NCBI GenBank assembly: GCA_022711175.1
Contig: JAKLFM010000002.1
Span: forward strand, 1,274 to 65,273
Direction: 5' to 3'
Source of the DNA: Bacteroidota bacterium
GTDB taxonomy: Bacteria > Bacteroidota > Bacteroidia > Bacteroidales > UBA4417
DNA: 64,000 nucleotides
Both the position numbers and the translations under genes were made by a program. Of this stretch, positions 1 to 26,911 are shown in pieces. Numbering within the stretch: position 1 is the first letter of the stretch; each line of letters starts with the position of its first letter. The notes under the pieces were generated by a model. The model was not told the origin of the DNA, ran no database searches, and worked only from the letters and a program-made list of their open reading frames with translations.

Positions 1-494
1 ATGCGGCTGCTCAATTCGTAGGAAGTGGTTTGCATAATTTCCCTGAAGGACGATGATAATTCCTGCAGTTGGGCAAACTCGTCGTTAGTAATTCCGTTAA
101 GCAGAGCTGTTTCGAGGTTGGCGTTGAGGATATCGACAACACGTAAAGCAGTTTCCGATAAGGAATGGTAGGAATAATGCCGGAGGCTGGTGCGGTAATT
201 CTTCATGGTCTGAAGCATCACGTTGTCGTGAAGCTCCGAAGCCGTTGAAATGGCCGCTCCGATGGCATTGTCGAGAGCGCTGTAGAGGCGTGAAGCCGCA
301 TCGCGCTTCTGGGCATGATGTTCAGTATATGGCCTGTCGAGTATCGACAGGAGTTCCGACATACGGTCGGTATTGCCGGCAAAAGAATCGCGGGCGGTTA
401 TTATTGAGGTGAATCCTTCGAAAGCGTCAGGATAATCGTTTAAAATCCTTCGCACTGTCAGGAATTTGTCTGTCGTTTTAAAAAAACGGTTCAT
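1..494 (-). CDS. hypothetical protein, 3' end cut by window edge (about 164 N-terminal aa visible); fourth gene of the XRE-ImmA cassette
   Basis: My own translation of the minus strand gives ATG at 494-492 (MNRFFKTTDKFLTVRRILNDYPDAFEGF...) with an in-frame TAA three codons upstream. The frame stays open to position 1. The start overlaps the end of ORF 478-966 by 17 nt. No motif recognised. Confidence 0.5.
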   Translation of the reverse strand, partial: MNRFFKTTDKFLTVRRILNDYPDAFEGFTSIITARDSFAGNTDRMSELLSILDRPYTEHHAQKRDAASRLYSALDNAIGAAISTASELHDNVMLQTMKNYRTSLRHYSYHSLSETALRVVDILNANLETALLNGITNDEFAQLQELSSSFREIMQTTSYELSSR

Positions 495-966
495 GTTCGT
501 TTAGTTTTAACGAGTATATAATAAGTGAATTTACGGGCAGTATATGCCAGCCCGCGGTGGCAGTTGCAGTGTGGGGGCGGGCCGAAAGTAACGGCACGAT
601 AAACCCCTTTTCTGACGGAGGCGATAGTCCGAGTGCCGGCCTGCTGATTAGTTTTCTGTAACAAATACGTTCATCTATCAGGAACTTGTATTTCTTCTGT
701 TCTGCTGAAAGTCTTTCCGACGGCAGATGAAGCCCTGTGATGCGAACAGCCTTTACTTTGATGAGGGAATCGTCGTACCATACAATGATATACCTTAGCC
801 ACTTTGTTCCCGGTTGCCTGCTTTCAACCGACCGGTGGAAAGCATTCGATATCCTGTAGGCAACCCGTGGCTCTTCAATGCGCCTGTGTATTTCGTACAA
901 GGTATCTTCATCCAGGACTATCAGCCCTTCGATACCCAAAAACCGTGCAAACTTTCCCCGGTTCAT
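478..966 (-). CDS. hypothetical protein (162 aa), third gene of the XRE-ImmA cassette
   Basis: From the ORF track. ATG 966-964 forms an ATGA start/stop overlap with the upstream ORF (963-1481). No domain recognised. The C-terminal third looks compositionally odd, so the true 3' end is uncertain. Confidence 0.45.
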   Translation of the reverse strand: MNRGKFARFLGIEGLIVLDEDTLYEIHRRIEEPRVAYRISNAFHRSVESRQPGTKWLRYIIVWYDDSLIKVKAVRITGLHLPSERLSAEQKKYKFLIDERICYRKLISRPALGLSPPSEKGFIVPLLSARPHTATATAGWHILPVNSLIIYSLKLNEHEPFF

Positions 967-1481
967 GCCAGCTTCTCTTTTTTGGGTAAAGCACTATTAA
1001 CGAACAGCTGCTTTTCATTGGGCAAAGCCAGCTTGTTTATCCGTCCAAGCAAAGGAGTATAATGATGTTTCAGCGATTTGTGGCTTATTATTCCAGCCAT
1101 GGCTAACTGCTCCAGTACACCTGAATAGGTGCAGACTGTAAGCCGCATTGCCTCTGCCGCTTTCAACATCCGGGGATCGATGGTCAACAGCGTACCATTG
1201 TCCCTGCTGGTCAGAAACAGTACTGAATAATCGGCTAATGTGAGGCCGGGCAGGGTGGTAGAAAGCTGATATGAATATTGAAGTTCATCCGGCGAAAGTG
1301 TAGATAAATAAATTTTACCCGTTTCGAGGGGTGCATGGGTAAATGCACCCGGAAAGGGGCCTTGAAGATATGCCGTCGAAGTGGTGGTGACGCGGAAACT
1401 GAAGCGGGAAATGGCCGGCAGCAATCCTGCTGCACCGAAATCCCTGATGCTTAATGTATCAAGAATGAGGAGGTTTGTCAT
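963..1481 (-). CDS. PIN-like (VapC/DUF4411-like) predicted nuclease, 172 aa
   Basis: The ATG (1481-1479) lies 23 nt inside the 3' end of the ImmA gene. Acidic residues sit in PIN-like contexts: LLILDT at the N-terminus, LTLADYSVLFLTS, and LLTIDPRMLKAA. The assignment is by eye only. Confidence 0.4.
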   Translation of the reverse strand: MTNLLILDTLSIRDFGAAGLLPAISRFSFRVTTTSTAYLQGPFPGAFTHAPLETGKIYLSTLSPDELQYSYQLSTTLPGLTLADYSVLFLTSRDNGTLLTIDPRMLKAAEAMRLTVCTYSGVLEQLAMAGIISHKSLKHHYTPLLGRINKLALPNEKQLFVNSALPKKEKLA

Positions 1482-2526
1482 GGTACTGATATAGTTTAAC
1501 GAGTTCTTCGAGCGGCAGGCTGGCCAGATCGGCAGCCTTCGTTAGTGAAATGAGTTGTTCTTCCATGGCACGTGATAGCAGTAATTGGAAACGAGTTGAT
1601 TTATCAGCCCTGCAATTGGTGCCGATGTGCAATTCCATCTTATCGGCGCTTATAATATGCATCAGGTTGATGTAAGTAAATTTTGAGATGATATCGTGTT
1701 GCAGGGCGTTGAGTGCGATTGCCCTGGCTGAGATTCCGTATTTATCCTTGAGAAGCCCCAGTTCACGGGGTGAGATGGATGTACGGTAGCGCCCCAGTTC
1801 GCGGATGAGCAGGTCGCGTGGTAACAGCATAGCTGCAGCAAACCGGTTGCAGAGAGTCTCCTTGTCATCATCCGATACGCCTGCTCCAAACTCGAGCAGC
1901 AGGTGTGCCAGTTCGTGAAGGGCTGAAAACCTTTTCCGTTCGGTAGTCGGGCCTTTGCCTCTCAGCACAATCACCGGTATTTCGTCGTTTGCAAAGCCTG
2001 AATAGCCGTCAAACTTGTCGTCGGCATCAATCTCGATCACGAGAATGCCGTTGTCTTCAATCAGGTTTATTACATTGCTGATACCTTCAAACCCGGTGTG
2101 CCAAAGCCTGCTTAGCAAGGCTGCTGCTGCTTCGGCATCTTCAGGCGTGTTGACAATGGTTTGTCTCAACGGATCAGTGAAAGTACCCGACACATTGAGC
2201 AGGCGCTCAAGTTCGAGGTAATTTTCGATGCGCGACGTTATTTCGTGTTTAAGGGATTCTTCCTTTCGTTTGCCAAGGTCAGCCTTTTTCCTGAACCTGA
2301 CTCCCGAGACGGTTACTGATAAAGGTTTATAGAAATATTCAACCTTCACATTCAATGCACCGGCAAGCGCTTCGAGCACAGCGGTATCGGCCATCATCTC
2401 TCCGCGCTCGTACTTGGCGATGGAGGTCTTTTTGACGAAACCGTTGATGCGGGCTACAAGCTGATCCTGCGAGAGGCCAGCCTGCTTGCGTGCACTGAGT
2501 AACCGTTTGGCGAATAGTTCTTTCAT
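1459..2526 (-). CDS. XRE-family HTH fused to an ImmA/IrrE (COG2856, M78-like) zinc metallopeptidase domain
   Basis: N-terminal HTH: LLSARKQAGLSQDQLVARINGFVKKTSIAKYERGE. HEXXH motif in SALHELAHLLLEF. Start moved to ATG 2526-2524 (MKELFAKRLL), because the ORF-track start at 2586 adds an implausible leader. Confidence 0.85.
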   Translation of the reverse strand: MKELFAKRLLSARKQAGLSQDQLVARINGFVKKTSIAKYERGEMMADTAVLEALAGALNVKVEYFYKPLSVTVSGVRFRKKADLGKRKEESLKHEITSRIENYLELERLLNVSGTFTDPLRQTIVNTPEDAEAAAALLSRLWHTGFEGISNVINLIEDNGILVIEIDADDKFDGYSGFANDEIPVIVLRGKGPTTERKRFSALHELAHLLLEFGAGVSDDDKETLCNRFAAAMLLPRDLLIRELGRYRTSISPRELGLLKDKYGISARAIALNALQHDIISKFTYINLMHIISADKMELHIGTNCRADKSTRFQLLLSRAMEEQLISLTKAADLASLPLEELVKLYQYHDKPPHS

Positions 2527-2945
2527 ATTAAGGTATCTTCCTCTCAGGGAATATTGTGTGTTCAATTCGATACAAAGATAGTGCAATTGTACCCGTGTTC
2601 AACAAAAAGATTAAAATATTTTTATGAACACTATGAAATTTATTCTAAAAAGTTGAAAGACAGGGCATATGATTTAAAAATAAAATTCAACATTAACAAA
2701 GATATAACACGAAAGGGACTTTTTGTCAATATTTGCATAATAAAATTGCAAGTGATTCGGGTTTCTGTACCGGGCAACCGCCTCCGGACAATATTTGTCT
2801 GAGGAAGTTCCGGGTAAGGACAATAAATTCGCGTATCATTATCCTGAAACCTGTCCTGAAAGATTGAATACAGATATCTACAGATAAAACATTATTGAGA
2901 TTTTTGGATATGCCCACACGGATTTTTGGATATAATCGGATAAAT

Positions 2946-3375
2946 GCCTGGCCTCCCTGTATAAAACCCTGACTTGTTTGTACAAAGGCCTGACATCTTT
3001 GTATTAAGGCCTGACCTCATTGTATAAGGGCCTGACCTCTTTGTACAAAGGCCTGACCTCTTTGTATGAAAGCCTGACCTCTTCGTATGAAAGCCTGACC
3101 TCTTTGTATAAAGGCTTGACCTCTTCGTATAAAGGCCTGACCTCTTCGTATGAAAGCCTGACCTCTTCGTATAAAGGCCTGACCTCTTCGTACGAAGGCC
3201 TGACCTCTTTGTACAAATGCCTGACCTCTTCGTACAAAGGCTTGACCTGGTTGTACAAAGGCCTGACCTCTTTGTACGAAGGCTTGACCTGGTTGTACAA
3301 AGGCCTGACCTCTTTGTACGAAGGCTTGACCTCTTTGTACAAAGGCCTGACCTCTTTGTATAAAGGCTTGACCTA
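2946..3375. repeat. Tandem array A: 20 copies plus a 10-bp partial of a 21-bp unit, GCCTGACCTCTTTGTACAAAG
   Basis: Read directly. Units are in phase from 2946 with no spacers. Consensus units contain the perfect 12-bp palindrome CTTTGTACAAAG. 3240-3323 is an exact duplication of a 42-bp two-unit block. Confidence 0.95.
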
Positions 3376-3387
3376 AAGGATGGAGTA

Positions 3388-3576
3388 ATTGACCCGATCC
3401 GTTAAGTAATTGAACTGAGCGAATGGGTGATTGAACTGAGCAAATGGGTGATTGAGCCGAGCGAATGGGTGATTGAACGGAGCGAATGAGTGATTGAACG
3501 GAGCGAATGAGTGATTGAACCGGGCGAATTAGTTATTGACTCGAGCGAATGAGTGATTGACTCGAGCAAAGGCTCT
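3388..3576. repeat. Tandem array B: about 9 copies of a different 21-bp unit, ATTGAACNGAGCGAATGRGTG
   Basis: Read directly. Units start at 3388, 3409, 3430, 3451, 3472, 3493, 3514, 3535 and 3556. The first and last copies are degenerate. The array begins 12 bp after array A ends. Confidence 0.9.
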
Positions 3577-3725: not shown

Positions 3726-4028
3726 ATGTCAACACTAGGATTGAAATTAAGAGAATTGAGAGAACAGTCAGGATTGTCTTTGCGAAAGGCTGCAATGCAA
3801 GTAGATATTGATGTGGCAATATTGAGCAAAATGGAACGTGGAGAAAGAAAATTCTCAAAAGAATTGGTTTTAAAATTAGCTGACCTTTATAAAGCTAACT
3901 CTCATAAATTAGTTATTGACTTTTTAAGTGAAAAACTACTTTACGATTTAGAGGACGAAGATTTTGGGCTTGAAGCATTGAAAGTCGCTGAGAAACAATT
4001 AAAATACAAGAAACAGAAAAATGTCTAA
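3726..4028 (+). CDS. XRE-family helix-turn-helix transcriptional regulator (100 aa)
   Basis: HTH: LRELREQSGLSLRKAAMQVDIDVAILSKMERGER. Its stop overlaps the next ORF's ATG by 8 nt (ATGTCTAA at 4021-4028). Confidence 0.85.
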   Translation: MSTLGLKLRELREQSGLSLRKAAMQVDIDVAILSKMERGERKFSKELVLKLADLYKANSHKLVIDFLSEKLLYDLEDEDFGLEALKVAEKQLKYKKQKNV

Positions 4029-4545
4029 ATCTGATAATATAAAACGGGCAAAGCTTCTACGTAAAAGAAAAAAAGAAAGGGAAAAACAAACCCTTTTCAA
4101 TGGTAATTTGCTTAAAGACCAACAAATGCTGCGTGAAAAAGCAGAAAAAGACAATGTAAAAATTGTGGACAGGTCCTTACTTGGCAGGGAAGAAAAAATA
4201 TCAACAGTTTTGCTCGAAATGATAAAGCCTGTTTTATTTACCGCACAGGATGAAGAGGATGCAAAGGGGATTGTAGCAATGGGCGTTGTAGCATGGAATT
4301 GCGGAGTTATTAAGCAAAAGTTGGGCGAAGACAAGCTGAAAGATGCAATGAAGGCATTTAAAAGTAAAGAAAACAGCGAAGAAAGAAAATTGCTTGATGA
4401 GTACATACAAGTTAAATGTAAACAGTTTGGGCAATACAACGATTTTATTACCGACTTTCAAATCTCTTTTGAGCGTGACGGAAGAATGAATTTCACCGTG
4501 CTTACAGGTGTAACTGACGATATTGCAAAAACATTAAAAAATTAA
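4021..4545 (+). CDS. hypothetical protein (174 aa) with a Lys/Arg-rich N-terminus
   Basis: From the ORF track. It is wedged between the XRE gene (8-nt overlap) and mod (3-nt gap). The N-terminus reads KRAKLLRKRKKEREKQ. No motif recognised and no HEXXH. Confidence 0.6.
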   Translation: MSKSDNIKRAKLLRKRKKEREKQTLFNGNLLKDQQMLREKAEKDNVKIVDRSLLGREEKISTVLLEMIKPVLFTAQDEEDAKGIVAMGVVAWNCGVIKQKLGEDKLKDAMKAFKSKENSEERKLLDEYIQVKCKQFGQYNDFITDFQISFERDGRMNFTVLTGVTDDIAKTLKN

Positions 4546-4548
4546 GCT

Positions 4549-6303
4549 ATGCCAACACTCCAATTCAAAGGGAAAAACATCATCTGGAACCACCATTTGG
4601 CTGTTCCGTTTCATACATTGGACGAAGTTCCAGAACTGCATTGCCAGCCCGAAAAAGCAAATGGTAATATGATAATTGAAGGCGACAACTTAATTGCTTT
4701 AAAAGCACTTTTGCCAGAATTCTCTAATCGAATTGATGTAGTTTGCATTGATCCACCTTATAATACTGGTAATGATAATGGACAAGGAAAAGGATGGATT
4801 TATAATGATAGAGTCAATAGCCCTTTAATAAAAGAATGGTTTGCTAAAGAAGTAGGGTTAGATGATTTAACAAGGCATGACAAATGGTGTTGTATGATTT
4901 CTCCAAGATTAAAATTACTGAGAGAATTGATGAAAGATGAAGGTTCCATTTTTATTTCACTTGACGATAATGAAATGTATACGCTGCGATCATTAATGAA
5001 TGAAATTTTCGGTGAGGAAAACTTTATTGCATTATTGCCAACCATAATGAATTTGAAAGGAAATCAAGATCAGTTTGCTTTTGCGGGTACACATGAATAT
5101 ACTTTAGTTTATGCAAAGAATAAGATTAAAAGTAGATTTTATGAGTTTGAATTAGATGATGAAGATGCAGATGATTGGGAATATGATAATATAGGCCCAT
5201 TTAAAAAAGGCAGAGGGCTGTTAGCTGATGGCAAAGGCAAATTCAGAGAAGAAAGGCAATACATGTATTTTCCCCTTCTGGTAAAAGATGGAAAAGTTTT
5301 TTTAATCCAAGAAAGTGAATACAAGAAAATATATGATGTTACTTCGAATTCATTTAATGATAAGTATGTGGATGATTTGGTGAAAAAATATACAAAAGAA
5401 GGTTATAAAGTTGTATTACCAATTGATAGTAATAATAACAAATTAAGATGGACATGGGGCTTTGATAAAAAATTTATGTCGCATTTGGATGAAATAATTG
5501 TGACTGAAACGAAAAATGGACTTTCATTAAATAAGAAACAAAGACCAACTTTAGGTGAATTACCCTCAAAAAAACCGAAAACGATTTTTTATAAACCACA
5601 ATATAGCAGCGGAAATGGAACAAATCAGCTAAAAGAGTTGTTACCTGATAAGGAATTCAACAATCCTAAACCAATTGATTTAATTAAGGATTTCATAATA
5701 ATAAGTACTGACAAGAATGCTATTATACTTGATTCATTTTCCGGATCTGGAACAACTATGCACGCAGTATTGGAATTAAATAAAGAAGATGGCGGAAACC
5801 GAAAATGTATAATGGTGCAAATGCCCGAAAATTCTGAAGCTGAACCAGATAAAAATATTTGTAAAGACATTACAAGGGAAAGAGTAAAACGGGCTATTGA
5901 AAAATACGGCTTCGATGCAGGCTTTCAATATTACCGCCTGGGTCTTCCCCTTGATGCAGAAACCATGCTGGCAGGACAATTACCAACCTACAAGCAGTTT
6001 GCAAAATATGTTTATTACCTGTGTACAGGTGAAAATCTGGAAGCAGAAGACAAAATAAACGAAGCCGAGTATTACGTTGGCGAGTATGGCAAACAAGCTA
6101 TTTATTTGGTTTACAAACAAGATTACGATACACTTACACGCCTTGCACTAAATTTAACACTTGCCAAAAAAATAAAGGAACAACAACCAGGCAAAAAGCG
6201 GATTGTGTATGCACCGTCATGCTTTTTGGACGAAGAATATTTAACTGACAATCAAATTGAATATGTGGGTATTCCATACAATTTATTTCAACGCAACCAG
6301 TAA
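4549..6303 (+). CDS. mod: Type III restriction-modification methyltransferase (Mod; beta-class N6-adenine/N4-cytosine MTase)
   Basis: Catalytic motif IV in VVCIDPPYNTG comes before the AdoMet motif I in LDSFSGSGTTMHAV (beta-class order). A long variable region lies between them. The res-type helicase gene follows directly. Confidence 0.85.
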   Translation: MPTLQFKGKNIIWNHHLAVPFHTLDEVPELHCQPEKANGNMIIEGDNLIALKALLPEFSNRIDVVCIDPPYNTGNDNGQGKGWIYNDRVNSPLIKEWFAKEVGLDDLTRHDKWCCMISPRLKLLRELMKDEGSIFISLDDNEMYTLRSLMNEIFGEENFIALLPTIMNLKGNQDQFAFAGTHEYTLVYAKNKIKSRFYEFELDDEDADDWEYDNIGPFKKGRGLLADGKGKFREERQYMYFPLLVKDGKVFLIQESEYKKIYDVTSNSFNDKYVDDLVKKYTKEGYKVVLPIDSNNNKLRWTWGFDKKFMSHLDEIIVTETKNGLSLNKKQRPTLGELPSKKPKTIFYKPQYSSGNGTNQLKELLPDKEFNNPKPIDLIKDFIIISTDKNAIILDSFSGSGTTMHAVLELNKEDGGNRKCIMVQMPENSEAEPDKNICKDITRERVKRAIEKYGFDAGFQYYRLGLPLDAETMLAGQLPTYKQFAKYVYYLCTGENLEAEDKINEAEYYVGEYGKQAIYLVYKQDYDTLTRLALNLTLAKKIKEQQPGKKRIVYAPSCFLDEEYLTDNQIEYVGIPYNLFQRNQ

Positions 6304-6309
6304 AAAACT

Positions 6310-8844
6310 ATGTATTTAAAAAAATATCAAATAAAAGTTGTAAGTGAAATCAAACAGTTTCTGCAAACTGCACGAGATACCAAAACATCGTTTGACATTG
6401 CAAAACAGGCATTGCCTGAAAATATGCGCCATACCTTGAATTGGGTGCAAACAACTTTTCAAACGAGTAATTTGGAATATAAAGACCGTTGTACAAACGG
6501 ATTGGGAAACAGTTATCCCCGAATGATTATAAAAGTTCCGACAGGTGGTGGAAAAACATTGCTTGCCGTTGAATCAATCAGGGAGTATCAGAACCTTTTT
6601 GCTCAAAAACGCACTGGGCTTGTAGTTTGGATTGTTCCGAGTGAAACCATTTACAGCCAAACTGTTCAAAAAATCAGGGACAAAGGAAATCCGTTACGCC
6701 AGTTATTAGACCAGTGCAGCGGAAACCGAACTATTATTTTGGAAAAAGGACAACGACTGACAACCAATGATATTGAAGAAAATTTGGTTGTCCTGTTTGT
6801 TATGATTCAGTCAATAAGCCGCACCAATGGGAAAGAAGCGTTAAAAGTTTTTCAGGACAGTGGCGGTTATGACAGTTTTTTCCCTGCCGACAATCGCTAT
6901 GACCTACACGAACAACTATTAAAGCAAGTTCCAAACCTTGATTTTATTTCACCTCTTGGCACAGAGCAACCTTTAATAATGACAAGTCTTGGAAACGCAA
7001 TCCGTATTTCAAAACCATTTATAATCATAGATGAAATTCACAAAGTATTTTCAGAAAATGCCCGAAAAACTATTGATAGTTTAAATCCTGACTTTGTACT
7101 TGGTTTTTCTGCAACACCAAAAGCCGAAATGAATGTTTTGGTTACCATTACAGGACTTGAACTTAAAGAGGAGGAAATGGTAAAACTCGACATGCACATT
7201 CTTCCACCCATCAGCAAGCAGGAAAATGACTGGAAAGCGATGGTAAAGGAAATTAAGGAGCATCGCGAGAAATTAGAAGAAACAGCAAAACAATATAAGG
7301 AAAATACAGGTGTTTACATCCGACCAACTGCTTTATTACAGGTTGAAGCAACAGGAAAAGACCAAAGAGGCAGAGGCAAGGTTCACAGTCTTGACGTTAA
7401 AGAATATCTGGTTAGTCTTGAAGTAAACCCCGATGAAATTGCAATAAAAACAAGCTCCCAAAATGATATTGAAGATGTAAACCTGTTCTCACAAAATTGT
7501 CCGGTCCGCTTTATTATTACCAAAGAAGCATTGCGGGAAGGTTGGGATTTTTCATTTGCTTACATTTTGGGAATTATTCCGAATGTGAATTCGAACACAG
7601 GCGTAACGCAGTTAGTTGGCAGAATATTACGTCAACCTTTTGCAAGAAAATCAGGAGTTAAAGAACTTGACGAGAGTTATGTTTATTATACAAAGGGCGA
7701 TACACGAGAAATTTTAGACAGAGTTTCAACCGGATTTAAGAATGAAGGACTTGAAGATTTGGTAACCAAACTGAAATTCCGTGATAACGAAGCAATAAAT
7801 GCCACCAAAACAGTAAAGATAAAAAAAGAGTTCAGCGAGAAGTTTCAAAACTCATTTTATTTGCCAGTTTGGCTAATGGTTGATAAAAGCGGTTCAAAAA
7901 GACGTTTTAATTACGAAAGCGACATCAAACCGAAAGTTGATTTTACAAAACTGGAATTGAATGATGAATTTTTGTCAAAACTTGAAAACTCATTGAGTAA
8001 CGAGACAAAAGAAAGAAAAGCATTTGCCATTACACTTGATGATTCGAGTAAAGCATCATTTGTTGAAGAACACAGTCAATCAAACGGAAAAGCAGAAATA
8101 AATATTGATTACTTAACACGCAGATTAAACGAATTAATTGAAAATCCTTTTTTGGCAAGGATTATCGGAACGAAATACTTATTACAAATTGAAGATAAAA
8201 TTGGAAAGGAAAAACTGAAAGAACATTACAGCTTCATTGTTTCTCAGCTATGTAAAAAGTTTCAGGAAGAAAAGATAAAGCAGGAAGAAGAAATATTTTT
8301 GGAAGAACTGAGAGTCCAAAATCTTGTTCTTGCAGTTTCTGATGATGATACAATAGGATTCAAAGTTCCAAAAGAGGATGTTATTACAGTGAGTCCAATT
8401 CCAAGCACATACAAATACTATCTTTTCGATGATGTTGAAGTAACAGCAATGAACACGCTTGAAAGGAAAGTTGGAGATTTACTTGACAAACAGGAAAAGA
8501 TTCTTTGGTGGTTCAGAAATAAAGTAAACAGAAAATGGTACTCTATACAAGGTTGGCAGCAGAATAAAATCAGACCAGACTTTGTAGCTGCAAAAAAAAC
8601 AGCCGATAATCATTTGGAATTGGTTTACATCATTGAAAGTAAAGGAGAACATCTTCTTGGAAACATCGACACGACCTATAAAAAGAAAGTACTTGATGTA
8701 ATGACGGAGCAAAAACAACTCAAAAATATTAAGGCTTATCAGACACAAATTCCATTTGAAGAATATGTGATCAATGAAAAAGTTGAATGCTATTTAGTAG
8801 AGCAAGGTAAAGAAGAAGAAAAAATTAAAGAGATATTGAAATAA
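6310..8844 (+). CDS. res: Type III restriction enzyme Res subunit (SF2 helicase plus C-terminal PD-(D/E)xK-like nuclease)
   Basis: Walker A in VPTGGGKTLLA, DEAH-like box in FIIIDEIHK, and LREGWDFSFAYILG. C-terminal IRPDFVAAKK...LVYIIESKGE is nuclease-like. The gene starts 6 nt after the mod stop. Confidence 0.85.
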   Translation: MYLKKYQIKVVSEIKQFLQTARDTKTSFDIAKQALPENMRHTLNWVQTTFQTSNLEYKDRCTNGLGNSYPRMIIKVPTGGGKTLLAVESIREYQNLFAQKRTGLVVWIVPSETIYSQTVQKIRDKGNPLRQLLDQCSGNRTIILEKGQRLTTNDIEENLVVLFVMIQSISRTNGKEALKVFQDSGGYDSFFPADNRYDLHEQLLKQVPNLDFISPLGTEQPLIMTSLGNAIRISKPFIIIDEIHKVFSENARKTIDSLNPDFVLGFSATPKAEMNVLVTITGLELKEEEMVKLDMHILPPISKQENDWKAMVKEIKEHREKLEETAKQYKENTGVYIRPTALLQVEATGKDQRGRGKVHSLDVKEYLVSLEVNPDEIAIKTSSQNDIEDVNLFSQNCPVRFIITKEALREGWDFSFAYILGIIPNVNSNTGVTQLVGRILRQPFARKSGVKELDESYVYYTKGDTREILDRVSTGFKNEGLEDLVTKLKFRDNEAINATKTVKIKKEFSEKFQNSFYLPVWLMVDKSGSKRRFNYESDIKPKVDFTKLELNDEFLSKLENSLSNETKERKAFAITLDDSSKASFVEEHSQSNGKAEINIDYLTRRLNELIENPFLARIIGTKYLLQIEDKIGKEKLKEHYSFIVSQLCKKFQEEKIKQEEEIFLEELRVQNLVLAVSDDDTIGFKVPKEDVITVSPIPSTYKYYLFDDVEVTAMNTLERKVGDLLDKQEKILWWFRNKVNRKWYSIQGWQQNKIRPDFVAAKKTADNHLELVYIIESKGEHLLGNIDTTYKKKVLDVMTEQKQLKNIKAYQTQIPFEEYVINEKVECYLVEQGKEEEKIKEILK

Positions 8845-9401: not shown

Positions 9402-11240
9402 TTAACCATTTCCTTCTTCCCCATTTTCTCTCCTGCCTTCCCTATGAAAATATCCATACACAATCCCCGCCTTGGCCTTACCCACCACTGCCTGCAGCTC
9501 TTCCAATGAGGCTTCGGATATTTTTTTCACGCTCCGAAACTTCCACAGTAGTGATTGCGCCGTGCTGAAACCAATGCCGTCAATATCAGTAAGCTGGGTT
9601 TTGATGGTTCCTTTTTCGCGGCGCTTGCGGTGATGCGTAATGCCGAAGCGGTGCGCTTCGTCGCGTATCTGCTGGATGATGCGCAGTGTCTCCGATTTCT
9701 TGTCGATGTACAACGGGATGGAGTCGCCGGGTTTGTAGATTTCTTCGAGCTTTTTGGCAATGCCTATCACATCAACCTTACCGTTCAGTCCGAGCTTTGT
9801 GAGGCTTGTCATGGCTGAACTCAACTGTCCCTTGCCGCCATCAATCACAACGAGCTGCGGAAGCGGCTTTTCCTCGTCGAGAAGGCGCCTGTACCGCCGG
9901 AAGATCACCTCTTCCATGCTGGCAAAATCGTCGGGGCCCTCTACTGTTTTAATGTTGAAATGGCGGTACTCCTGCTTGTCGGGTTTGCCGTTGCTGAACA
10001 CCACCATGGCAGCAACCGGGTAGGCGCCCTGAATGTTTGAATTGTCGAAGCATTCAATCCGCAGCGGCTCGGTTTTCAGCCGTAAGTCCGACTGCATTTG
10101 TGCCATGATGCGTTTTGTATGGCGCTCGGGATCAACGCGTTCGAGCTGCTTGTTTTTTTCGATGCGGTAGAATTTGGCATTGCGTTCGCTCAGTTCGAGC
10201 AGCGCTTTTTTATCTCCCCTGATGGGGATGGCAGTGGTGATTCCCTCCATTTCCACGTCAAGTGCAAACGGAACCACAATCTCGCGGGCATCGCTCTGGA
10301 AACGGTTTCTCAACTCGGTAACGGCGAGGGTGAGCAATTCGGCAGGCGATTCGTCGAGGCGCTTTTTTAGCTCCAGTGTATGACTCTGTATGATGCAGCC
10401 ATTGATCACTTTCATAAAATTGACGTACGCCGACGAAATATCATCGCAGTATGAAAATACATCCACGTTGTGTATGGAAGGGTTCACCACCGCCGATTTG
10501 CTCTGGTAGCGGTCGAGCAGCTCGATTTTCTCCTTCAGGAACTGTGCTTTTTCAAATTGATAATCCGCCGCGCTTTGTTTCATCATGGCGGTCAGCCCTT
10601 GTCTTACGGTTGAAATATTGCCTTTGATGATCTGCCTGATCTCGTTCAGCGTCTGCTGGTATTCCTCCTGTGCCTGCAGTCCTTCGCATGGCCCTTTGCA
10701 GTTGCCGATATGATATTCGAGGCAAACCTTGAATTTCTTTTGCCGGATGTTTGTCTCCGAAAGGTTGAGCGAACAGGTCCTGAGAGGATAAAGTTGCCGG
10801 ATAAGGTCGAGCACGGTGTGCATCATTTTCCCCGATGCGTAGGGGCCGAAATATTCCGATCCGTCTTTTACCAGGCTCCGGGTAGGGAAGATGCGCGGAA
10901 AGGGTTCGTTTTTGATGCAAATCCAGGGATAGGTTTTATCATCCTTGAGCATCACGTTGTAGCGCGGCTGGTATTTCTTGATGAGGTTGTTTTCGAGCAG
11001 CAGCGCATCGAGTTCGGTATCGACAACAATAAAACGGATGTCCTCAATCTTCTGAACCAGAATTTTCACTTTCCCGGTAAGGGAGCCGTCGCGGGTAAAA
11101 TACGATGAGACTCTCTTTTTCAGATTCTTAGCCTTGCCGACATACAACAGCTTGCCTTCCTTATCGTAATACTGGTACACCCCGGGCTTATCGGGAAGAT
11201 CCTTTACGATGTTTTCGACGTGCAGTGATTTGGGAGGCAT
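9402..11240 (-). CDS. uvrC: excinuclease ABC subunit C
   Basis: GIY-YIG N-terminus (PGVYQYYDKEGKLLYVGKAKNLKKRV). C-terminal HhH (LTDIDGIGFSTAQSLLWKF). 612 aa. Confidence 0.95.
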   Translation of the reverse strand: MPPKSLHVENIVKDLPDKPGVYQYYDKEGKLLYVGKAKNLKKRVSSYFTRDGSLTGKVKILVQKIEDIRFIVVDTELDALLLENNLIKKYQPRYNVMLKDDKTYPWICIKNEPFPRIFPTRSLVKDGSEYFGPYASGKMMHTVLDLIRQLYPLRTCSLNLSETNIRQKKFKVCLEYHIGNCKGPCEGLQAQEEYQQTLNEIRQIIKGNISTVRQGLTAMMKQSAADYQFEKAQFLKEKIELLDRYQSKSAVVNPSIHNVDVFSYCDDISSAYVNFMKVINGCIIQSHTLELKKRLDESPAELLTLAVTELRNRFQSDAREIVVPFALDVEMEGITTAIPIRGDKKALLELSERNAKFYRIEKNKQLERVDPERHTKRIMAQMQSDLRLKTEPLRIECFDNSNIQGAYPVAAMVVFSNGKPDKQEYRHFNIKTVEGPDDFASMEEVIFRRYRRLLDEEKPLPQLVVIDGGKGQLSSAMTSLTKLGLNGKVDVIGIAKKLEEIYKPGDSIPLYIDKKSETLRIIQQIRDEAHRFGITHHRKRREKGTIKTQLTDIDGIGFSTAQSLLWKFRSVKKISEASLEELQAVVGKAKAGIVYGYFHREGRRENGEEGNG

Positions 11241-11460
11241 TCGGTGGTTGTTTTGGGATTGGGGTGTTGGGTTTTGGGAATTATTCAGTTGTTGATTCAG
11301 TTGTTGATTCGGTGGTTGTTTTGGGATTAGAGTGTTGAGTTTTGGGATTGGGATTTATTCAGTGGTTGATTCAGTGGTTAATTCAGTGGTTGATTCGGTG
11401 GTTGATACGGTGGTTAATTCGGTTGATGATTCGGATTATAGGAGTTGATCCTTCACCCGA
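11241..11460. repeat. Nested G/T-rich (plus strand) tandem repeats filling the thiL-uvrC spacer
   Basis: A block of about 68-86 bp starting TCGGTGGTTGTTTTGGGATT occurs at 11241 and 11309, with a partial copy at 11395. Inner 12-bp words ATTCAGTKGTTG are repeated. By my count there are 12 C in 11241-11437. Confidence 0.85.
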
Positions 11461-12745: not shown

Positions 12746-15664
12746 ATGTTTCGCTCCCGTTTTCTGCTACTACTTGTAGGTTTCTTCCTGCTGAATGCTG
12801 CCATAGCGCAGGACTTCCGAATTACAGGCGTATTACTCAATGCCGATGATCAGCTTCCGCTGGTTGGCGCCACCGTGAAACTGACGAGCGCCCGCGATAC
12901 CACTCAATTCAAATACACAACCTCGAAACAGCAGGGCGATTTTGAGTTCAGTAAGCTGAACCGTGGCCCTTATATCCTCGAAATCACATACATAGGGTTT
13001 GATAAACTGAGGAAAAGCGTCGTTGCAAATTCCGCGACGCCCAAACGCGAGCAATACATCCTCAAGCCTTCGGCTACCACGCTCAAAGAGGTTGACGTAA
13101 CGAGTACCACCATCAGGGGAGAACAGAAAGGCGATACCGTGCAGTTCAATGCCAACGCGTTTAAGGTTACCCAGGATGCGACAACCGAAGACCTTGTGCG
13201 GAAAATGCCGGGCATCACCGTTGAAAACGGCACTGTAAAAGCACATGGTGAGGAAGTGAAAAAGGTGCTGGTGGACGGCAAACAGTTTTTTGGAGACGAT
13301 CCTTCGGTTGCGCTGCGAAACCTTCCGGCAGAAGTAGTTGACAAAATCCAGGTATTTGATAAGCTCTCCGACCAGGCAGCCTGGACGGGATTTGATGATG
13401 GCAATGCCCAGAAAACCCTGAATATTGTCACCAAATCGGCAAAGAACAACGGGCAGTTCGGCAAGTTTTCGGCCGGCTACGGCACCAACGACCGCTACCT
13501 GCTGGGCGCTAACATGAATATTTTCAACGACCAGCGAAGGATCACCCTGCTTGGCCTCAGCAACAACATCAACATGCAGAATTTCACCGCGGATGAAGCT
13601 ACATCGGGCTCTTCGGGTTCAGGAGGCGGAATGATGTCGGGCAGAGGCGGAGGCCCGGGTGGTGGTTTCAACATGGGGCCATCGAGCGGCATCAATACCA
13701 TCAACTCATTGGGAGGCAACTTCAACCAAAGCTGGGGGACAAAACTTACGGTAAACGGCAGCTACTTCTACAACCGCAACATCAACGACCTGACGAAGAA
13801 AATCAGCCGGCAGTACTTCCTTACCGCCGACTCGAGCCAGTATTACAATGAGAATACGGTTTCGCGGAATACCGGCAACAACCACAGGATGAACGTCAGG
13901 ATTGAATACAATCCAAACGACAACAATTCGATCATCTTCACACCACGCTTAACGGTTCAAAACAGTTCGGCAAACAGCAATGTGCTGGCATTGAGCGGTT
14001 ATGCCCCCGATTTTCTGACAACCTCCATGATGCTGAGCGCTACCGATAATCAGACGGAGAGCAAATCGGAGAGTGTTAATTTTAACAACGACTTCCTGTA
14101 CCGTCATAAATTTGCGAAAAAGGGACGCACGGCCTCCATCAACCTTGGCACAGGTTTTAATGACCGTACCCGCGACAATGTGCTCAGCGCACTCAACAGC
14201 TATTACGGAACTCAAAGCGGCACCTGGGGCGATTCGCTGCAGCAGCAGGCCAAAACGCTTACCACAGGGCTTTCGCTGTCATCGAACCTGGTTTATACCG
14301 AACCGGTGGGCGAAAACAGCCAGTTGCAGGCCAATTACAATATTTCATACTCCAAAAACGACAACGATAAAAAAACATTCGATTATGTGTTTGAGCAGCA
14401 GGACTATTCGCCCTATGTTGATACGCTGCTGTCGAATGTTTACAACAACCGCTATATTACCCACCGTCCCGGACTCGGTTATTTGTATAAAACCGAAAAG
14501 GCAAACCTTAATGCCGGTGTCACATACCAGTATGCTTTGCTCAAAGGCGAACAGGAATTCCCGAAAGCTGCTAACACCGAAAATACGTTTAAAAATATCC
14601 TGCCGAACCTGTTTTTCAATTACAAGTTCTCCGACCGTATGAACCTGAGGGTGGTGTATCGTAGCAGCACCAACGCCCCTTCGGTAAGCCAGCTGCAGGA
14701 GGTGGTTGACAATTCGAACCAGCTGCTGCTGTCGGCAGGTAACCCGAACCTGAAACAGGAAGTTCGCCATTTTGCCATGAGCCGTTTCTCGTGGCAGAAC
14801 AAACCAAAAACGGCTAATATTTTCTGGATGTTTTTCTTCCAGAAAATGCAGGATTACATCGGCAATTCAACGATGCTCGTGAAGCGCGATACCGTGTTCT
14901 TCGGACAGTTTGTTGCCCGCGGGGCGCAGATATCCATGCCGGTCAACCTCGATGATTCATGGAATACCCGAACCTTCCTTTCGGTGGGTATTCCGCTGAA
15001 GTTTATCAAGAGCAACCTCAACTTTAACAGCGGATTGAGTTATACCCAGATTCCGAGTTTGATCAACGGCATGCAGAACCTTTCCAAAACACTCGGTATC
15101 AACGAAGGAGCTGTGATTGCGAGCAATATCAGCCAGAAGCTTGATTTTACGCTTACTTACAACTTCAACTACAACTTTGTTGACAACACGCTGCAGTCGC
15201 AATCCGACAACAATTACATATACCAGGCTGCATCGGCAACTGTAAACTGGCAGTTCTGGAAAGGGTTCTTCGTTCAGAACAATGTGACATACCAGAAGTA
15301 CAACGGTATTTCGACCAGTTACCTCACGGATTATACGCTGTGGAATGCAGCCGTTGGGATGAAATTCCTGAAAAACAATGCTGCCGAAGTAAAGCTCAGC
15401 GCCTTTGACCTTTTAAATGAGAACAGGAGTGTAAACCGCAGTGTTTCCGATACCTACATCGAAGATTCATACACCGAAGTACTGCAGCGTTATGTGATGC
15501 TTACATTTACCTATAATCTGCGCAATTTCAACGGCAAAACCCCGCCAGCCAACCCCGACAGGCGAGGCGACTGGCATCGCGACGGCCCTCCTCCGGGTGG
15601 CGGCTCCGGGCCTCCTCCGGGTGGTGGTTTTAGCCCGCCTCCGGGTGGTGGTTTCCCGCTGTAA
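12746..15664 (+). CDS. outer-membrane beta-barrel / TonB-dependent-receptor-like protein with an N-terminal CarboxypepD_reg-like domain
   Basis: Signal peptide MFRSRFLLLLVGFFLLNAAIAQ. Ig-like FRITGVLLNADDQLPLVGATVKL. Plug-like segment VRKMPGITVENG. Long alternating beta-strand region ending LTFTYNLRNF, followed by a 44-aa Pro/Gly tail. Confidence 0.8.
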   Translation: MFRSRFLLLLVGFFLLNAAIAQDFRITGVLLNADDQLPLVGATVKLTSARDTTQFKYTTSKQQGDFEFSKLNRGPYILEITYIGFDKLRKSVVANSATPKREQYILKPSATTLKEVDVTSTTIRGEQKGDTVQFNANAFKVTQDATTEDLVRKMPGITVENGTVKAHGEEVKKVLVDGKQFFGDDPSVALRNLPAEVVDKIQVFDKLSDQAAWTGFDDGNAQKTLNIVTKSAKNNGQFGKFSAGYGTNDRYLLGANMNIFNDQRRITLLGLSNNINMQNFTADEATSGSSGSGGGMMSGRGGGPGGGFNMGPSSGINTINSLGGNFNQSWGTKLTVNGSYFYNRNINDLTKKISRQYFLTADSSQYYNENTVSRNTGNNHRMNVRIEYNPNDNNSIIFTPRLTVQNSSANSNVLALSGYAPDFLTTSMMLSATDNQTESKSESVNFNNDFLYRHKFAKKGRTASINLGTGFNDRTRDNVLSALNSYYGTQSGTWGDSLQQQAKTLTTGLSLSSNLVYTEPVGENSQLQANYNISYSKNDNDKKTFDYVFEQQDYSPYVDTLLSNVYNNRYITHRPGLGYLYKTEKANLNAGVTYQYALLKGEQEFPKAANTENTFKNILPNLFFNYKFSDRMNLRVVYRSSTNAPSVSQLQEVVDNSNQLLLSAGNPNLKQEVRHFAMSRFSWQNKPKTANIFWMFFFQKMQDYIGNSTMLVKRDTVFFGQFVARGAQISMPVNLDDSWNTRTFLSVGIPLKFIKSNLNFNSGLSYTQIPSLINGMQNLSKTLGINEGAVIASNISQKLDFTLTYNFNYNFVDNTLQSQSDNNYIYQAASATVNWQFWKGFFVQNNVTYQKYNGISTSYLTDYTLWNAAVGMKFLKNNAAEVKLSAFDLLNENRSVNRSVSDTYIEDSYTEVLQRYVMLTFTYNLRNFNGKTPPANPDRRGDWHRDGPPPGGGSGPPPGGGFSPPPGGGFPL

Positions 15665-25595: not shown

Positions 25596-25870
25596 ATTTG
25601 AAGATTTGAAAATGGGGAATGAGGAAAATTTGAAAATTTGAAAATGGGGAAATGGTGAATCTGGAGACTGGAATCTGGAAACTGGAAATAGGAAACAGTT
25701 AATTGGTAACAATTGTTGGGATTTGAAAGCAGTAAGTAGGTGGATCCCTTTAGGGATATAGGGGCGGGAAGGTGAGCGCTGAAATCTGGAACCCGGCACC
25801 CGGAACCACAAGGTTTACAAAGAAGATTTTAAGGAAACCGGAAACTTTAAACATGAGACTTGAGACAGAT
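25596..25870. repeat. Low-complexity word repeats downstream of the permease and upstream of the AraC gene
   Basis: ATTTGAA(G/A) occurs x5, AATGGGGA(A)ATG x2 and AATCTGGA x4, plus GGAAAC/GAGAC words. 25596-25660 contains no C at all on the plus strand. A small hairpin ATCCC-TTTA-GGGAT lies near 25743-25756. Confidence 0.75.
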
Positions 25871-25966: not shown

Positions 25967-26911
25967 ATGAACTCAAGTGAATTCAGCCGGCAGGAGTATA
26001 CAGCCCGCATCAACCGCGTGATGGATTACATCGGGAAGAACCTCGGCGACCAGATTGACCTGTCGGTTATGGCCGAAATCGCTTCGTTTTCGCCATACCA
26101 TTTTCACAGGATATTTACGTTTATTGTCGGTGAAACGTCTGCTGACTTTGTCTCGCGGATCAGGCTTGAGAAAGCGGCACAATTACTTCGCGATGATACG
26201 AAATCAACGGTAGGCGATATTGCCTTCAGGTGCGGTTTTGTGAACATTTCTTCTTTCAGCCGGGTGTTCAGGAGCTATTTCGGCATGACCACCAGGGAGT
26301 TTCGCGAACAGGAAAAAGCCATTTTTGTGAAGGACGGTATCAGATATGGCAAGAATTGCAAACCGGTGAGCAAGATTGGTAAACATGTTCAGCAGGTAAA
26401 CGATCAATTTTGCAGTGTCGATTATAAACAACTCATCATTATGGACACGAAAATTGAAATTAAGCAGATGCCGGAACTGCATCTAATCTATTGCCGTCAC
26501 ATGGGCGCTTTCAACAAAATTGGCCAGGCTTATGAAAAGCTTTACCGCTGGGCAGGCCCCCGCGGACTGGTGACACCTGCTGCCCGCACCGTGACGGTGT
26601 ATCACGACGATCCGGCAATCACCAGCATCGATAAGGTGCGCCAGGATGCAAGCCTCGTGGTTAAGGGCGATGTAAAGGTCGAAGGCGAAATAGGCAAGTC
26701 AACCATCCCGGGCGGCAAGTATGCCGTGGGTCATTTTGAGATCAGGGAAACCGAATTTGAGCAGGCATGGAATACCATGTGTTCGTGGCTTACCGAAAGC
26801 GGCTACCAGCCCGGTGAAGGCCCTACCTATGAGTATTACCACAACGATTACAACGAACACCCCGAACACAAATTTATCGTGGACATCTGCCTGCCCGTGA
26901 AACCGTTGTAA
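25967..26911 (+). CDS. AraC-family transcriptional regulator with a GyrI-like effector-binding C-terminal domain
   Basis: AraC HTH: IAFRCGFVNISSFSRVFRSYFGMTTREFR. The C-terminal half (GGKYAVGHFEIRETEFEQAWNTMCSWL) is GyrI/SOUL-like. Confidence 0.85.
   Translation: MNSSEFSRQEYTARINRVMDYIGKNLGDQIDLSVMAEIASFSPYHFHRIFTFIVGETSADFVSRIRLEKAAQLLRDDTKSTVGDIAFRCGFVNISSFSRVFRSYFGMTTREFREQEKAIFVKDGIRYGKNCKPVSKIGKHVQQVNDQFCSVDYKQLIIMDTKIEIKQMPELHLIYCRHMGAFNKIGQAYEKLYRWAGPRGLVTPAARTVTVYHDDPAITSIDKVRQDASLVVKGDVKVEGEIGKSTIPGGKYAVGHFEIRETEFEQAWNTMCSWLTESGYQPGEGPTYEYYHNDYNEHPEHKFIVDICLPVKPL

Follow-up and report, generated by a model that had tools for sequence, protein, structure and literature searches.

Plasmid iterons (those of P1, F, R6K, pSC101 and RK2) and the P1 incA locus are made up of ~20-bp direct repeats at ~two-turn spacing. 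There are 3-9 units, their sequence is cognate to each replicon, and such arrays can titrate or handcuff a single protein. The partition centromeres R1 parC, pSK41 parC (20-bp repeats) and F sopC form a one-sided cooperative nucleoprotein filament, and their sequences are orthogonal between systems. Type III TA arrays (ToxI, CptI, TenpI) contain 2-6 copies of a 34-45 nt unit; members of one family share the unit length but differ in its sequence, and the pairs are cognate. Three-component TA-like modules combining an XRE-COG2856(M78) protein with a PIN protein are also of a known kind (Makarova et al., 2009; PMC2701414).

The window analyzed here is the whole 64-kb stretch of DNA from a Bacteroidota bacterium, and near its left end is a tract of tandem repeats (2946-3567). 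Comparison of about 100 related loci, with period profiling over 582 kb of them, identifies this tract as a conserved non-coding satellite of a small mobile Bacteroidota defence-island module, and not of the type III R-M system encoded alongside. The predicted layout of the module is [flank motif]-[21-bp array]-(rmrA - PIN-like g2 - g1)-g0, and its parts in the window are as follows.

1..494, minus strand: g0, first 164 codons of a 313-aa protein (full length in locus L001)
478..966, minus strand: g1, 162 aa, no family match (conservation by tblastn)
963..1481, minus strand: g2, a 172-aa PIN-like (VapC-type) putative toxin (AF2 and Foldseek), overlapping the end of rmrA
1459..2526, minus strand: rmrA-like gene, XRE HTH fused to an M78 (ImmA/IrrE) peptidase (Pfam HTH_3 and Peptidase_M78)
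2558..2631, minus strand: promoter and putative operator region of the XRE-M78 gene (12 lineages aligned by eye, motif scan)
2899..2933, plus strand: flank ("leader-like") motif, two copies with GATTTTTGGATAT (comparison across loci)
2946..3375, no strand: array A (TRF, unit table, pattern search, column variability)
3376..3567, no strand: array B (TRF, register table, pattern search)

How does this arrangement compare with the described systems? As in iterons, units of the 17-22-bp class are directly repeated at ~two turns, the period being 21 in all 12 lineages that carry an array. Unlike iterons, however, the array lies in a chromosomal defence island with neither a Rep initiator nor a plasmid, it numbers 15-40 units as against 3-9, and its candidate binder, g0, has no winged-helix fold. 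Partition centromeres likewise consist of head-to-tail repeats that differ in sequence from system to system, but no ParA/ParM or ParB/ParR gene was seen at any of the loci compared here and the array is not on a plasmid. Type III TA arrays share the placement of a non-coding tandem array beside an abortive-infection- or TA-like module; in contrast to these, the units here are 21 nt long and present in 15-40 copies, and the array, lying 215-1000 bp from the next gene, is neither co-oriented with nor directly upstream of a toxin gene and lacks a terminator. Neither Pfam nor PADLOC matched g0, g1, g2 or g5 to the ToxN/AbiQ, CptN or TenpN toxins. In its genes the module resembles RosmerTA and other XRE-M78 + PIN systems, since the operon starts with a fused XRE-M78 protein (RmrA HMM) followed by a predicted PIN-fold protein. 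A literature search, however, gave no tandem DNA array or g0-type gene for those systems, nor any paper tying RosmerTA, XRE-M78 modules or defence islands to 21-bp arrays, and the array here accompanies g0 and not rmrA.

The original prediction described an array of about 20 head-to-tail 21-bp copies at 2946-3375. TRF confirms it (2942-3374, period 21, 20.6 copies, 84% matches, 0% indels, score 537), and array A comprises 20.5 abutting units with the consensus GCCTGACCTCTTTGTACAAAG. Several other features that had been read from the sequence also stand: an exact 42-bp two-unit duplication at 3240-3323 (3240-3281 = 3282-3323), a 13-bp direct repeat GATTTTTGGATAT at 2899-2911 and 2921-2933, a non-coding gap of ~1.2 kb (1199 bp are gene-free), and flanking genes encoding XRE + Peptidase_M78 on the minus strand and XRE, a 174-aa ORF and type III Mod + Res on the plus strand. 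The array had further been said to be built on a perfect 12-bp palindrome. This is present in the consensus, but only 2 of the 20 units of array A contain the exact CTTTGTACAAAG; a perfect 12-bp palindrome of any kind is found in 3/20 and a perfect 10-bp one in 5/20. By column variability the best-conserved stretch of the unit is GCCTGACCTC (read on the operon strand, GAGGTCAGGC), not the palindrome. The extent given for the array is real, but array B, which directly abuts it, had been missed. Array B consists of about 9 units (7-9) of GTGATTGAACYGAGCGAATGR in the same 21-bp register, with a related TGAMC core at equal offset; it therefore continues array A to give a repeat tract of about 620 bp (2946-3567), and is the older or distal portion of a single compound A+B array. 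Array edges are degenerate in the unit table. An AT-rich flank adjoins the array. In a second assembly of this organism, array A has 15 units and array B has 8, and the differences from the window preserve the register; the 15 versus 20 A units reflect either copy-number polymorphism or assembly collapse.

The unit is confined to this locus. The degenerate form GCYTGACCTCTTYGTAYRAAG has 19 matches at up to three mismatches in the 64-kb window, against 0.02 expected, all of them in array A, and TRF found no further array of base period 21 and at least 150 bp in the same 64 kb. Among 185,579 species genomes, the array A unit was found again in one array, the orthologue in a Lentimicrobiaceae MAG, and otherwise only as two single chance matches. 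A generic minisatellite scattered over many unrelated loci, which had been named as a finding that would refute the prediction, is thereby rejected. Other intergenic tandem arrays do occur in these genomes, including a 12-bp array at 11239-11434 and 7-bp (TCCGTTC)n arrays in the related MAG. A contingency locus (1-9 bp units in an ORF or promoter) was also considered and rejected, the unit being 21 bp and the distance between array and -7 box exceeding 350 bp; gain or loss of 21 bp keeps the helical phase. A CRISPR array was rejected because the units abut without spacers and the scan of the window's left end showed no cas genes; in lineage L104, a true CRISPR array lies beside the 21-bp array yet is distinct from it.

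Arrays of period 21, 42 or 63 are present in 12 of 14 g0 lineages (the window locus, L008, L009, L010-12, L019, L020, L034, L099/L015, L100, L101, L104 and L105, but not L014 or L102/103), although many contigs break at arrays, so that copy numbers, and the absence of an array from short contigs, are uncertain. None of 25 loci with an RmrA homologue but no g0 has one, giving an association between array and g0 of Fisher p=2e-8 when lineages are counted as independent, though they are related. In every array-bearing lineage the array and the promoter that serves g0 are 215-1000 bp apart, with the array on the upstream side. Arrays are kept down to 33% g0 identity and through inversion and loss of rmrA/g2/g1; in L101 and L105 they accompany g0 alone, rmrA, g2 and g1 all being absent within 7 kb. 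This distribution indicates that arrays follow g0, and neither rmrA nor type III R-M.

What is conserved is the spacing. The two-helical-turn period, already singled out in the original prediction, is the key feature and the sole property kept in every related lineage: every g0-locus array that reaches 200 bp repeats at 21 bp or at a multiple of it, and no array of base period 21 and at least 150 bp was found outside the g0 arrays in the 582 kb profiled. Unit sequences are mostly unrelated between lineages, most profiles being no more alike than permuted controls, and the MAG GCA_015657475.1 carries four g0 paralogues/modules with four different array units. The similarity of the array B unit to that of L099/L015 is borderline (common GTAATTGA). 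Within units, variability is clustered, leaving a ~10-bp core of about one helical turn (combined p=0.005).

The flank motif contains TTTTTGGATATGCCC at 2901-2915. Related motifs (TTTTTGGACAYTCCC) lie beside the arrays of five other lineages, always with their polarity into the array, and exact TTTTTGGACAYTCCC occurs only four times in 101 loci, each adjoining an array. Motif and array together are inverted relative to the operon in the window locus and L008, and not in L009, L099 or L101; their orientation is thus free relative to the operon, as expected of a DNA site. In L100, an IS256-family element is inserted within the motif with the target duplication ATTTTTTTG, so the motif is not an IS terminus and this candidate was rejected. 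Read directly, the motif sequences show no recognizable promoter, the TA that belongs to the Bacteroidota -7 box (TAnnTTTG) being missing, and scans for a promoter (sigma-70-type only) or terminator flanking the array gave nothing above chance.

The rmrA-like product matches the PADLOC RmrA model PDLC03949 over its full length (E=1.4e-41) and the NCBIfam spr1629-family antitoxin, and it is the predicted regulator/antitoxin of the operon. No HMM matches g2 (Pfam, PADLOC and other family scans); its AF2 model is of moderate confidence (pLDDT 69), its top Foldseek matches are all PIN/VapC proteins (TM 0.48-0.63), and a DUF3368 protein that occupies its place in L013 shows weak colinear similarity to it. 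By tblastn, g1 varies more than the other genes of the operon, and Pfam, PADLOC, NCBIfam and PHROG scans gave no family match for it. In the search for an adjacent RmrT toxin, PADLOC matched none of g0, g1 and g2. The order XRE-M78 (RmrA-like), PIN-like g2, g1 and lastly g0 is usual in g0 loci, which have R-M, McrBC, GmrSD, Cas9, Kiwa KwaA and SNF2/PLD genes as neighbors, a defence-island context. The chromosomal neighbors of the window locus are uvrC, thiL and suf genes.

It had been stated that no gene in the window explains the array. The best-associated partner, g0, is in fact present at 1-494 on the minus strand, cut by the left edge. A strongly basic linker joins its helical N-domain to an acidic CarboxypepD_reg β-sandwich (Pfam; AF2 pLDDT 84), and this architecture is uniform across the family, which amounts to 41 clusters among 1.84 billion representatives. 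Foldseek matches cover the β-sandwich only (carboxypeptidase D TTR-like domain, pilins and phage tail-fibre domains); the helical N-domain has no structural match there, no DNA-binding fold is recognizable in g0, and sequence searches of PDB, Pfam, NCBIfam and PHROG were uninformative as to function. The N-domain is variable and roughly neutral in charge. The linker has 6-8 K/R residues in each of the 12 lineages with an array; the two without one (L014 and L102) have 4 each, the two lowest values of 14 (a 1/91 chance by rank, with only two negative lineages). A variable helical domain joined to a linker that is strongly basic only in array-bearing lineages makes g0 the likeliest candidate for the binder. 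Such a linker suits RNA binding equally well.

What, then, could the array do? The account we favor, still tentatively, is that it constitutes a set of helically phased putative cognate binding or docking sites, most likely for g0. Each unit would be a site bound by a module-encoded protein, g0 being the best candidate, and the exact two-turn spacing would place the bound proteins on one face of the DNA, where about 15-40 protomers could assemble into a cooperative filament. Such a filament could act in cis to dock g0, to titrate it or to let it autoregulate, and concerted evolution could maintain the match between an array and the g0 of its module, permitting several modules to coexist in one cell. 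Searches for the array unit at its own promoter or operon, or antisense to the operon, gave cognate matches no better than non-cognate ones; with no copy of the unit at the promoter, there is no sign of simple autoregulation via a shared site.

The iteron-like or cooperative-binding reading of the original prediction survives as the best guess, but the neighboring XRE proteins (1459-2526 and 3726-4028), which had been put forward as the binders, are unsupported in that role, and an operator or titration array for either of them is very unlikely. Such a role would suit the consensus palindrome CTTTGTACAAAG, which is of the kind bound by dimeric HTH proteins; the units of L009 are palindromic too (TTTGCGCAAA), and array B units (GATTGAACNG) agree at 7/9 positions with the operator half-site ATTGAACAC. 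The units of most lineages, however, have no palindrome, and XRE-M78 appears to have an operator of its own. Three GTGTTCA/TGAACAC half-sites (2558-2564, 2595-2601 and 2625-2631), here taken as putative RmrA operators, lie around the Bacteroidota-type -7 box TATCTTTG of the XRE-M78 gene (2573-2580, minus strand), where they form an inverted repeat shared throughout the clade, GTGTTCA-N22/23-TGAACAC. RmrA is highly conserved in its HTH, and this inverted repeat is unlike any array unit, and no half-site at 0-1 mismatches falls inside any array, the one flanking copy being at the edge of the L019 array window. Arrays also stand beside g0 alone, with no XRE gene, in L101 and L105. The plus-strand XRE/type III R-M cassette is limited to this organism's locus, being missing from the 11 other array-bearing lineages (in L008, homology to the window stops inside the array), and a controller (C-protein) operator of the R-M system was rejected on the same grounds. 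Still less probable is a plasmid-type iteron origin or partition centromere of an integrated element, also part of the original prediction. The directly repeated 21-bp units, spaced two helical turns apart like those of iterons and certain parC sites, would fit it, as would the AT-rich flank. The locus, however, is surrounded by chromosomal housekeeping genes, GC skew does not switch at the array, and neither the array nor g0 was found in PLSDB (72,556 plasmids) or IMG/VR. The Rep- or ParA/ParB-like gene that had been suggested as worth looking for nearby did not appear: no Rep, ParA, ParB or ParR was found among the genes scanned at the window's left end, nor among those called at 15 related loci, and Pfam, PADLOC, NCBIfam and PHROG scans of the flanking genes gave no Rep family. 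On the same searches of IMG/VR and PLSDB, carriage of the module by phages or plasmids was rejected, as was capture of the units from phages (three unit types, no matches in IMG/VR).

An RNA role deserves more weight, although it too is unlikely: the array could be transcribed, perhaps from the flank motif, and its 21-nt units bound or processed by a module protein (the g0 linker or PIN-like g2), akin to a type III TA RNA or a guide-like array. A fixed unit length with free sequence, and different units for the paralogues of one genome, recall type III antitoxin arrays, and the fixed polarity of the motif towards the array, the basic linker and the modeled PIN RNase fold of g2 are all consistent with it. 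However, no promoter was recognized in the motif and no terminators beside the array, Rfam had no match to the array, folding energies against column-permuted arrays gave no consistent signal on either strand (MFE z -2.2 to +1.4), array and operon show no complementarity, no ToxN, CptN or TenpN toxin is present, and 15-40 copies is far above the 2-6 of type III arrays; in the window locus and L008, moreover, the array is inverted relative to the operon and hence not co-transcribed with it. That only the 21-bp phase matters, the array being sequence-independent structural DNA (a phase-preserving spacer, an insulator, or curved or flexible DNA modulating the promoter or recruiting a nucleoid protein), is improbable. 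It would account for a period conserved without its sequence, for the free orientation and for the constant position upstream of the promoter serving g0. Set against shuffled units, however, natural ones rank anywhere from the 2nd to the 96th percentile in predicted bend (wedge model), and there is therefore no consistent selection for curvature, while the conserved unit core, the restriction to g0 loci and the linker correlation would be left unexplained. About equally improbable is a neutral minisatellite (VNTR) of single origin beside an ancestral cassette, hitch-hiking with it, its period kept by in-register unequal recombination. The 15 versus 20 units in two assemblies, the recent exact 42-bp duplication, the degenerate edges and the other intergenic arrays of these genomes (12-bp and 7-bp) are as it would predict, but the array is retained in 12/14 lineages, to 33% g0 identity, despite cassette rearrangements, and no other base-period-21 array of at least 150 bp occurs in the 582 kb of loci profiled. 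Units have diverged to saturation, yet no g0-locus array has a 20-, 22- or 23-bp period, and fixed indels would be expected under neutrality. Finally, 21 bp is seven codons, but a heptad-repeat protein encoded by the array is scarcely credible. Several frames are open through array A, and gene callers place ORFs in some arrays (112 aa in L001, 161 aa in L009); no strand or frame, however, is consistently open. L063 has at least two stops in all six frames and array B of the window at least one; the AFVQRGQ frame lacks a start codon in the window locus and contains two stops in L008. Unit variation has no codon-phase bias and the deduced peptides are unrelated across lineages, so the coding reading was rejected on six-frame translations, stop counts and the codon-phase test.

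The docking-site account can be extended, although this is doubtful, to a two-part immune or addiction module formed by the 21-bp array and g0. Array DNA or RNA would hold g0 inactive or positioned, acting as a repeat-made tether or "antitoxin," with specificity renewed by concerted evolution to give up to four orthogonal modules per genome, mostly under an RmrA-PIN switch sensing damage or infection. The orthogonal array/g0 pairs, four in one genome, make specificity directly testable by array swaps. Gene-centred annotation misses such arrays, since callers ignore them or call spurious ORFs and short-read assemblies break there. If the proposal is correct, a helically phased repeat array would be an integral, conserved part of a defence-island module, a class of Bacteroidota intergenic minisatellites would gain a concrete function, a small new protein family (g0) would be defined, and a non-coding component would be added to RosmerTA-like XRE-M78/PIN systems.

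The 21-bp head-to-tail array predicted at 2946-3375 (array A) was borne out: TRF places it at 2942-3374, with 20.6 copies, 84% matches, a score of 537 and no indels. A pattern search of the window with the degenerate unit, allowing up to three mismatches, gave 19 matches against 0.02 expected, and none outside the array. An exact 42-bp duplication (on re-examination), the 13-bp direct repeat GATTTTTGGATAT in two copies and the 1199-bp gap around the array were likewise recovered. The original prediction built the unit on a palindrome; CTTTGTACAAAG does exist but is exact in only 2 of 20 units, and the invariant part is GCCTGACCTC instead. The extent given for array A was correct, but an adjoining array (array B) had been missed. 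Its units carry a TGAMC core related to that of array A, at a matching offset, and since array A continues in register into array B, the repeat tract amounts to about 620 bp.

Features around the repeat tract (window positions)
1-494, minus strand: g0, codons 1-164 of 313 aa; the complete gene is in L001
2558-2564, 2595-2601 and 2625-2631: GTGTTCA/TGAACAC half-sites in the minus-strand promoter region (2558-2631)
2946-3375: array A
3376-3567: array B, about nine units of GTGATTGAACYGAGCGAATGR, directly abutting array A in a shared 21-bp register
3726-8844, plus strand: low-GC (34-41%) cassette of XRE, 174-aa ORF, type III Mod and Res

A 15-nt exact repeat, AATTAGTTATTGACT, has one copy within array B (3527-3541) and one within the plus-strand XRE gene (3907-3921); it may be coincidence, as some exact 15-mer recurs in 13 kb with a chance of roughly 0.1.

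The window is Bacteroidota chromosome, with genes including uvrC, thiL, suf genes, dxs and those for OMP_b-brl_3/CarboxypepD_reg proteins. The minus-strand operon left of the array comprises four genes, an XRE-HTH/M78-peptidase fusion at its head and three given the working names g2, g1 and g0. The fusion matches PADLOC RmrA (E=1.4e-41) and the NCBIfam spr1629-type antitoxin. The AF2 model of g2 (172 aa), of moderate confidence, matches PIN/VapC structures exclusively, and a PIN-like g2 in this position would fit the known association of XRE-COG2856 with PIN (PMC2701414). No family could be assigned to g1 (162 aa). In the plus-strand cassette, the XRE protein is controller-like and the 174-aa ORF is without a family. 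Other repeats in the window include a separate 12-bp tandem array, unrelated to the 21-bp one, between uvrC and a thiL-like gene (11239-11434; ATTCRGTGGTTG, about 6.5 copies plus a three-copy block), at whose site lies a 41-nt direct repeat (11239-11279 and 11307-11347). A 24-bp repeat, in three copies, is coding and in frame within an OMP_b-brl_3 gene (15585-15655), and a cluster of 7/8/14/32-bp repeats (25582-25696) lies in the gap between genes 23949-25595 and 25967-26911.

With which neighbour does the array belong? Among the sequences found, the window is most closely related to a Lentimicrobiaceae MAG (locus L008), with 88% DNA identity across 3.4 kb. Homology spans the four-gene operon, enters the array and ends inside it; the L008 array is longer (861 bp in total, in 42-bp units of two 21-bp subunits). 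An assignment of the array to the XRE/type III R-M side fails here, as L008 has the array without the R-M cassette, which was inserted beside the array in this organism only. A wider survey covered XRE-M78 homologues and g0 homologues with their contigs, 80 metagenome loci and 4 viral loci, each scanned for tandem periodicity. In the window and at the related loci L008, L009, L010-12, L015/L099, L018, L019, L020, L034, L063 and L104, an array is found 215-1000 bp upstream of the operon; its period is 21, or 42/63/84/126 with 21-bp substructure. Solitary g0 genes at L101 and L105 also have an upstream array (262 and 215 bp, respectively) and lack rmrA, g2 and g1 within 7 kb; at L100 the array is 1.6 kb upstream of g0, with a weak g1-like remnant alone in between. 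Overall, 12 of the 14 g0 lineages having enough upstream DNA carry an array; the g0 proteins of the two others (L014, L102/103) rank with the most divergent, at 32-33% identity. RmrA-homologue loci without g0 have an array in 0 of 25 cases (Fisher p=2e-8 against g0 lineages, a statistic that ignores phylogeny). Genes beyond the array vary by locus (type III, MmeI-type, type I and Eco57I-type R-M, McrBC, GmrSD, Cas9/CRISPR, KwaA, SNF2/PLD) and are a defence-island context. Since the array tracks g0 lineages while its far-side neighbours change, it is assigned to g0 and its operon rather than to the R-M cassette; the tract accompanies the g0 module in cis as a conserved element.

Some of these neighbourhoods have features of their own. 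At L104 (2621-4637) a type II CRISPR array (46-47-nt repeats, about 21 units, cas9/cas1/cas2 upstream) stops 28 bp short of the g0-module array (21 bp x 16.5), and cas9 genes also adjoin the array-less g0 in L102/L103. At L013 (8001-12309) an rmrA homologue (47% identity) leads a different operon, of DUF3368 (PIN-like), Piwi-domain Argonaute and GmrSD_N genes, adjoining a type III-like R-M system with SIR2 and DUF87 genes; no array is present.

The unit sequences are mostly unrelated across lineages in profile comparisons with permuted controls. Only W_A-L008 (W being the window), L101-L105, L101-L104, L019-L104 and L099-L034/L104 exceed the 99th percentile; what little similarity is left in these pairs points to shared ancestry, with concerted evolution thereafter. 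In a single MAG (GCA_015657475.1), four contigs each carry a g0 paralogue, and the four units all differ. The base period is nevertheless 21 in every g0-locus array, and 20, 22 or 23 in none; the 21-bp phase, two helical turns, is maintained while unit sequence turns over. As units have diverged to saturation while the period never shifted, we infer selection on the period. Variability within units is clustered, with a better-conserved core of about 10 bp (combined permutation p=0.005). In 582 kb of profiled loci, no further array with a base period of 21 reached 150 bp. Only one other long array lies close to an rmrA homologue, at L062, a locus without detectable g0 (1106-1479; 44 bp x 7.4, 227-252 bp upstream of a homologue of 43% identity); it differs in type but matches in relative position. 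Downstream of g0, and at other places in the Lentimicrobiaceae MAG, there are long arrays of 7-bp units ((TCCGTTC)n and its variants) with REP-like hairpins close by: L008 (4778-5185), L100 (9009-9430) and L101 (9151-9618, 13306-13648). Intergenic minisatellites with other periods abound in this genome.

A flank motif, TTTTTGGACAYTCCC (inside GTGTATTAAACTTACACAYTTTTTTGGACAYTCCC), is separated from the array by 0-95 bp in the window, L008, L009, L099, L100 and L101, with a variant at L105. It points into the array in every case; motif and array together are inverted relative to the operon in the window and L008. The 13-bp direct repeat of the window is its duplicated flank motif. At L100 an IS256-family element (Transposase_mut, 4440-6000) sits inside the motif T-run with target duplication ATTTTTTTG, and with a second IS end some 10 bp upstream, the region looks like an insertion hotspot.

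The g0 family is tiny (32 clusters by word-indexed search; 41 at 50% identity among 1.84 billion representatives) and about 305-315 aa long in nearly all clusters. Its AF2 model (pLDDT 84) comprises an all-helical N-domain (residues 1-208, one helix running to 56 residues), joined by a disordered linker to a CarboxypepD_reg beta-sandwich, to which Foldseek matches are confined. Variation falls in the N-domain, whose charge is roughly neutral; the beta-sandwich is strongly conserved, with a very acidic pI of 4.1. The linker has 6-8 K/R residues in all 12 array-bearing lineages and 4 in both array-less ones, the two lowest of 14 (1/91 by rank, in a small, non-independent sample). This is the sole feature tying a specific protein property to array presence, and such a strongly basic linker would fit nucleic-acid binding by g0, whether of DNA or of RNA.

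The tract is not coding: none of the reading frames, on either strand, is open consistently, codon-phase bias is absent and deduced peptides are unrelated across lineages, which disposes of a heptad-repeat protein. Nor is it an operator or titration array for the adjacent XRE-M78 protein, as had been proposed. Ahead of the XRE-M78 gene, each array-bearing-clade lineage carries a conserved inverted repeat, GTGTTCA-N22/23-TGAACAC, with the Bacteroidota -7 box (TAnnTTTG) between its arms and one more half-site placed distally. The inverted repeat is positioned as in the window at L008, L010, L014, L015, L019, L020, L032 and L063; in the window, L008 and L009 one half-site is direct rather than inverted. 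This repeat is likely the operator of this RmrA clade and differs from the array units. Half-sites with 0-1 mismatch are absent from the arrays, save one flanking operator copy at the L019 array-window edge; array B alone weakly resembles a half-site. Reuse of the array unit within its own operon was not above background. The suggested plasmid-type centromere or iteron array did not hold as to origin: the locus is chromosomal, and units and g0 are both absent from IMG/VR and PLSDB plasmids, so the tract is neither plasmid- nor phage-derived.

What, then, could the array do? A repeat RNA as the partner seems unlikely, as arrays gave no Rfam match and no consistent folding signal, and their flanks no terminator or recognisable promoter. 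A sequence-independent structural element is more doubtful still: predicted bends of 2-28 degrees per unit (in a wedge model) span percentiles 2-96 of shuffled units. A neutral, hitch-hiking minisatellite is about equally improbable, given a period constant at 21 despite sequence saturation. The literature searched yielded no account of arrays of this kind beside defence modules, RosmerTA-like or otherwise. The leading but tentative reading is that the array provides phased DNA sites bound by the cognate g0. It would then work like an iteron or centromere array.
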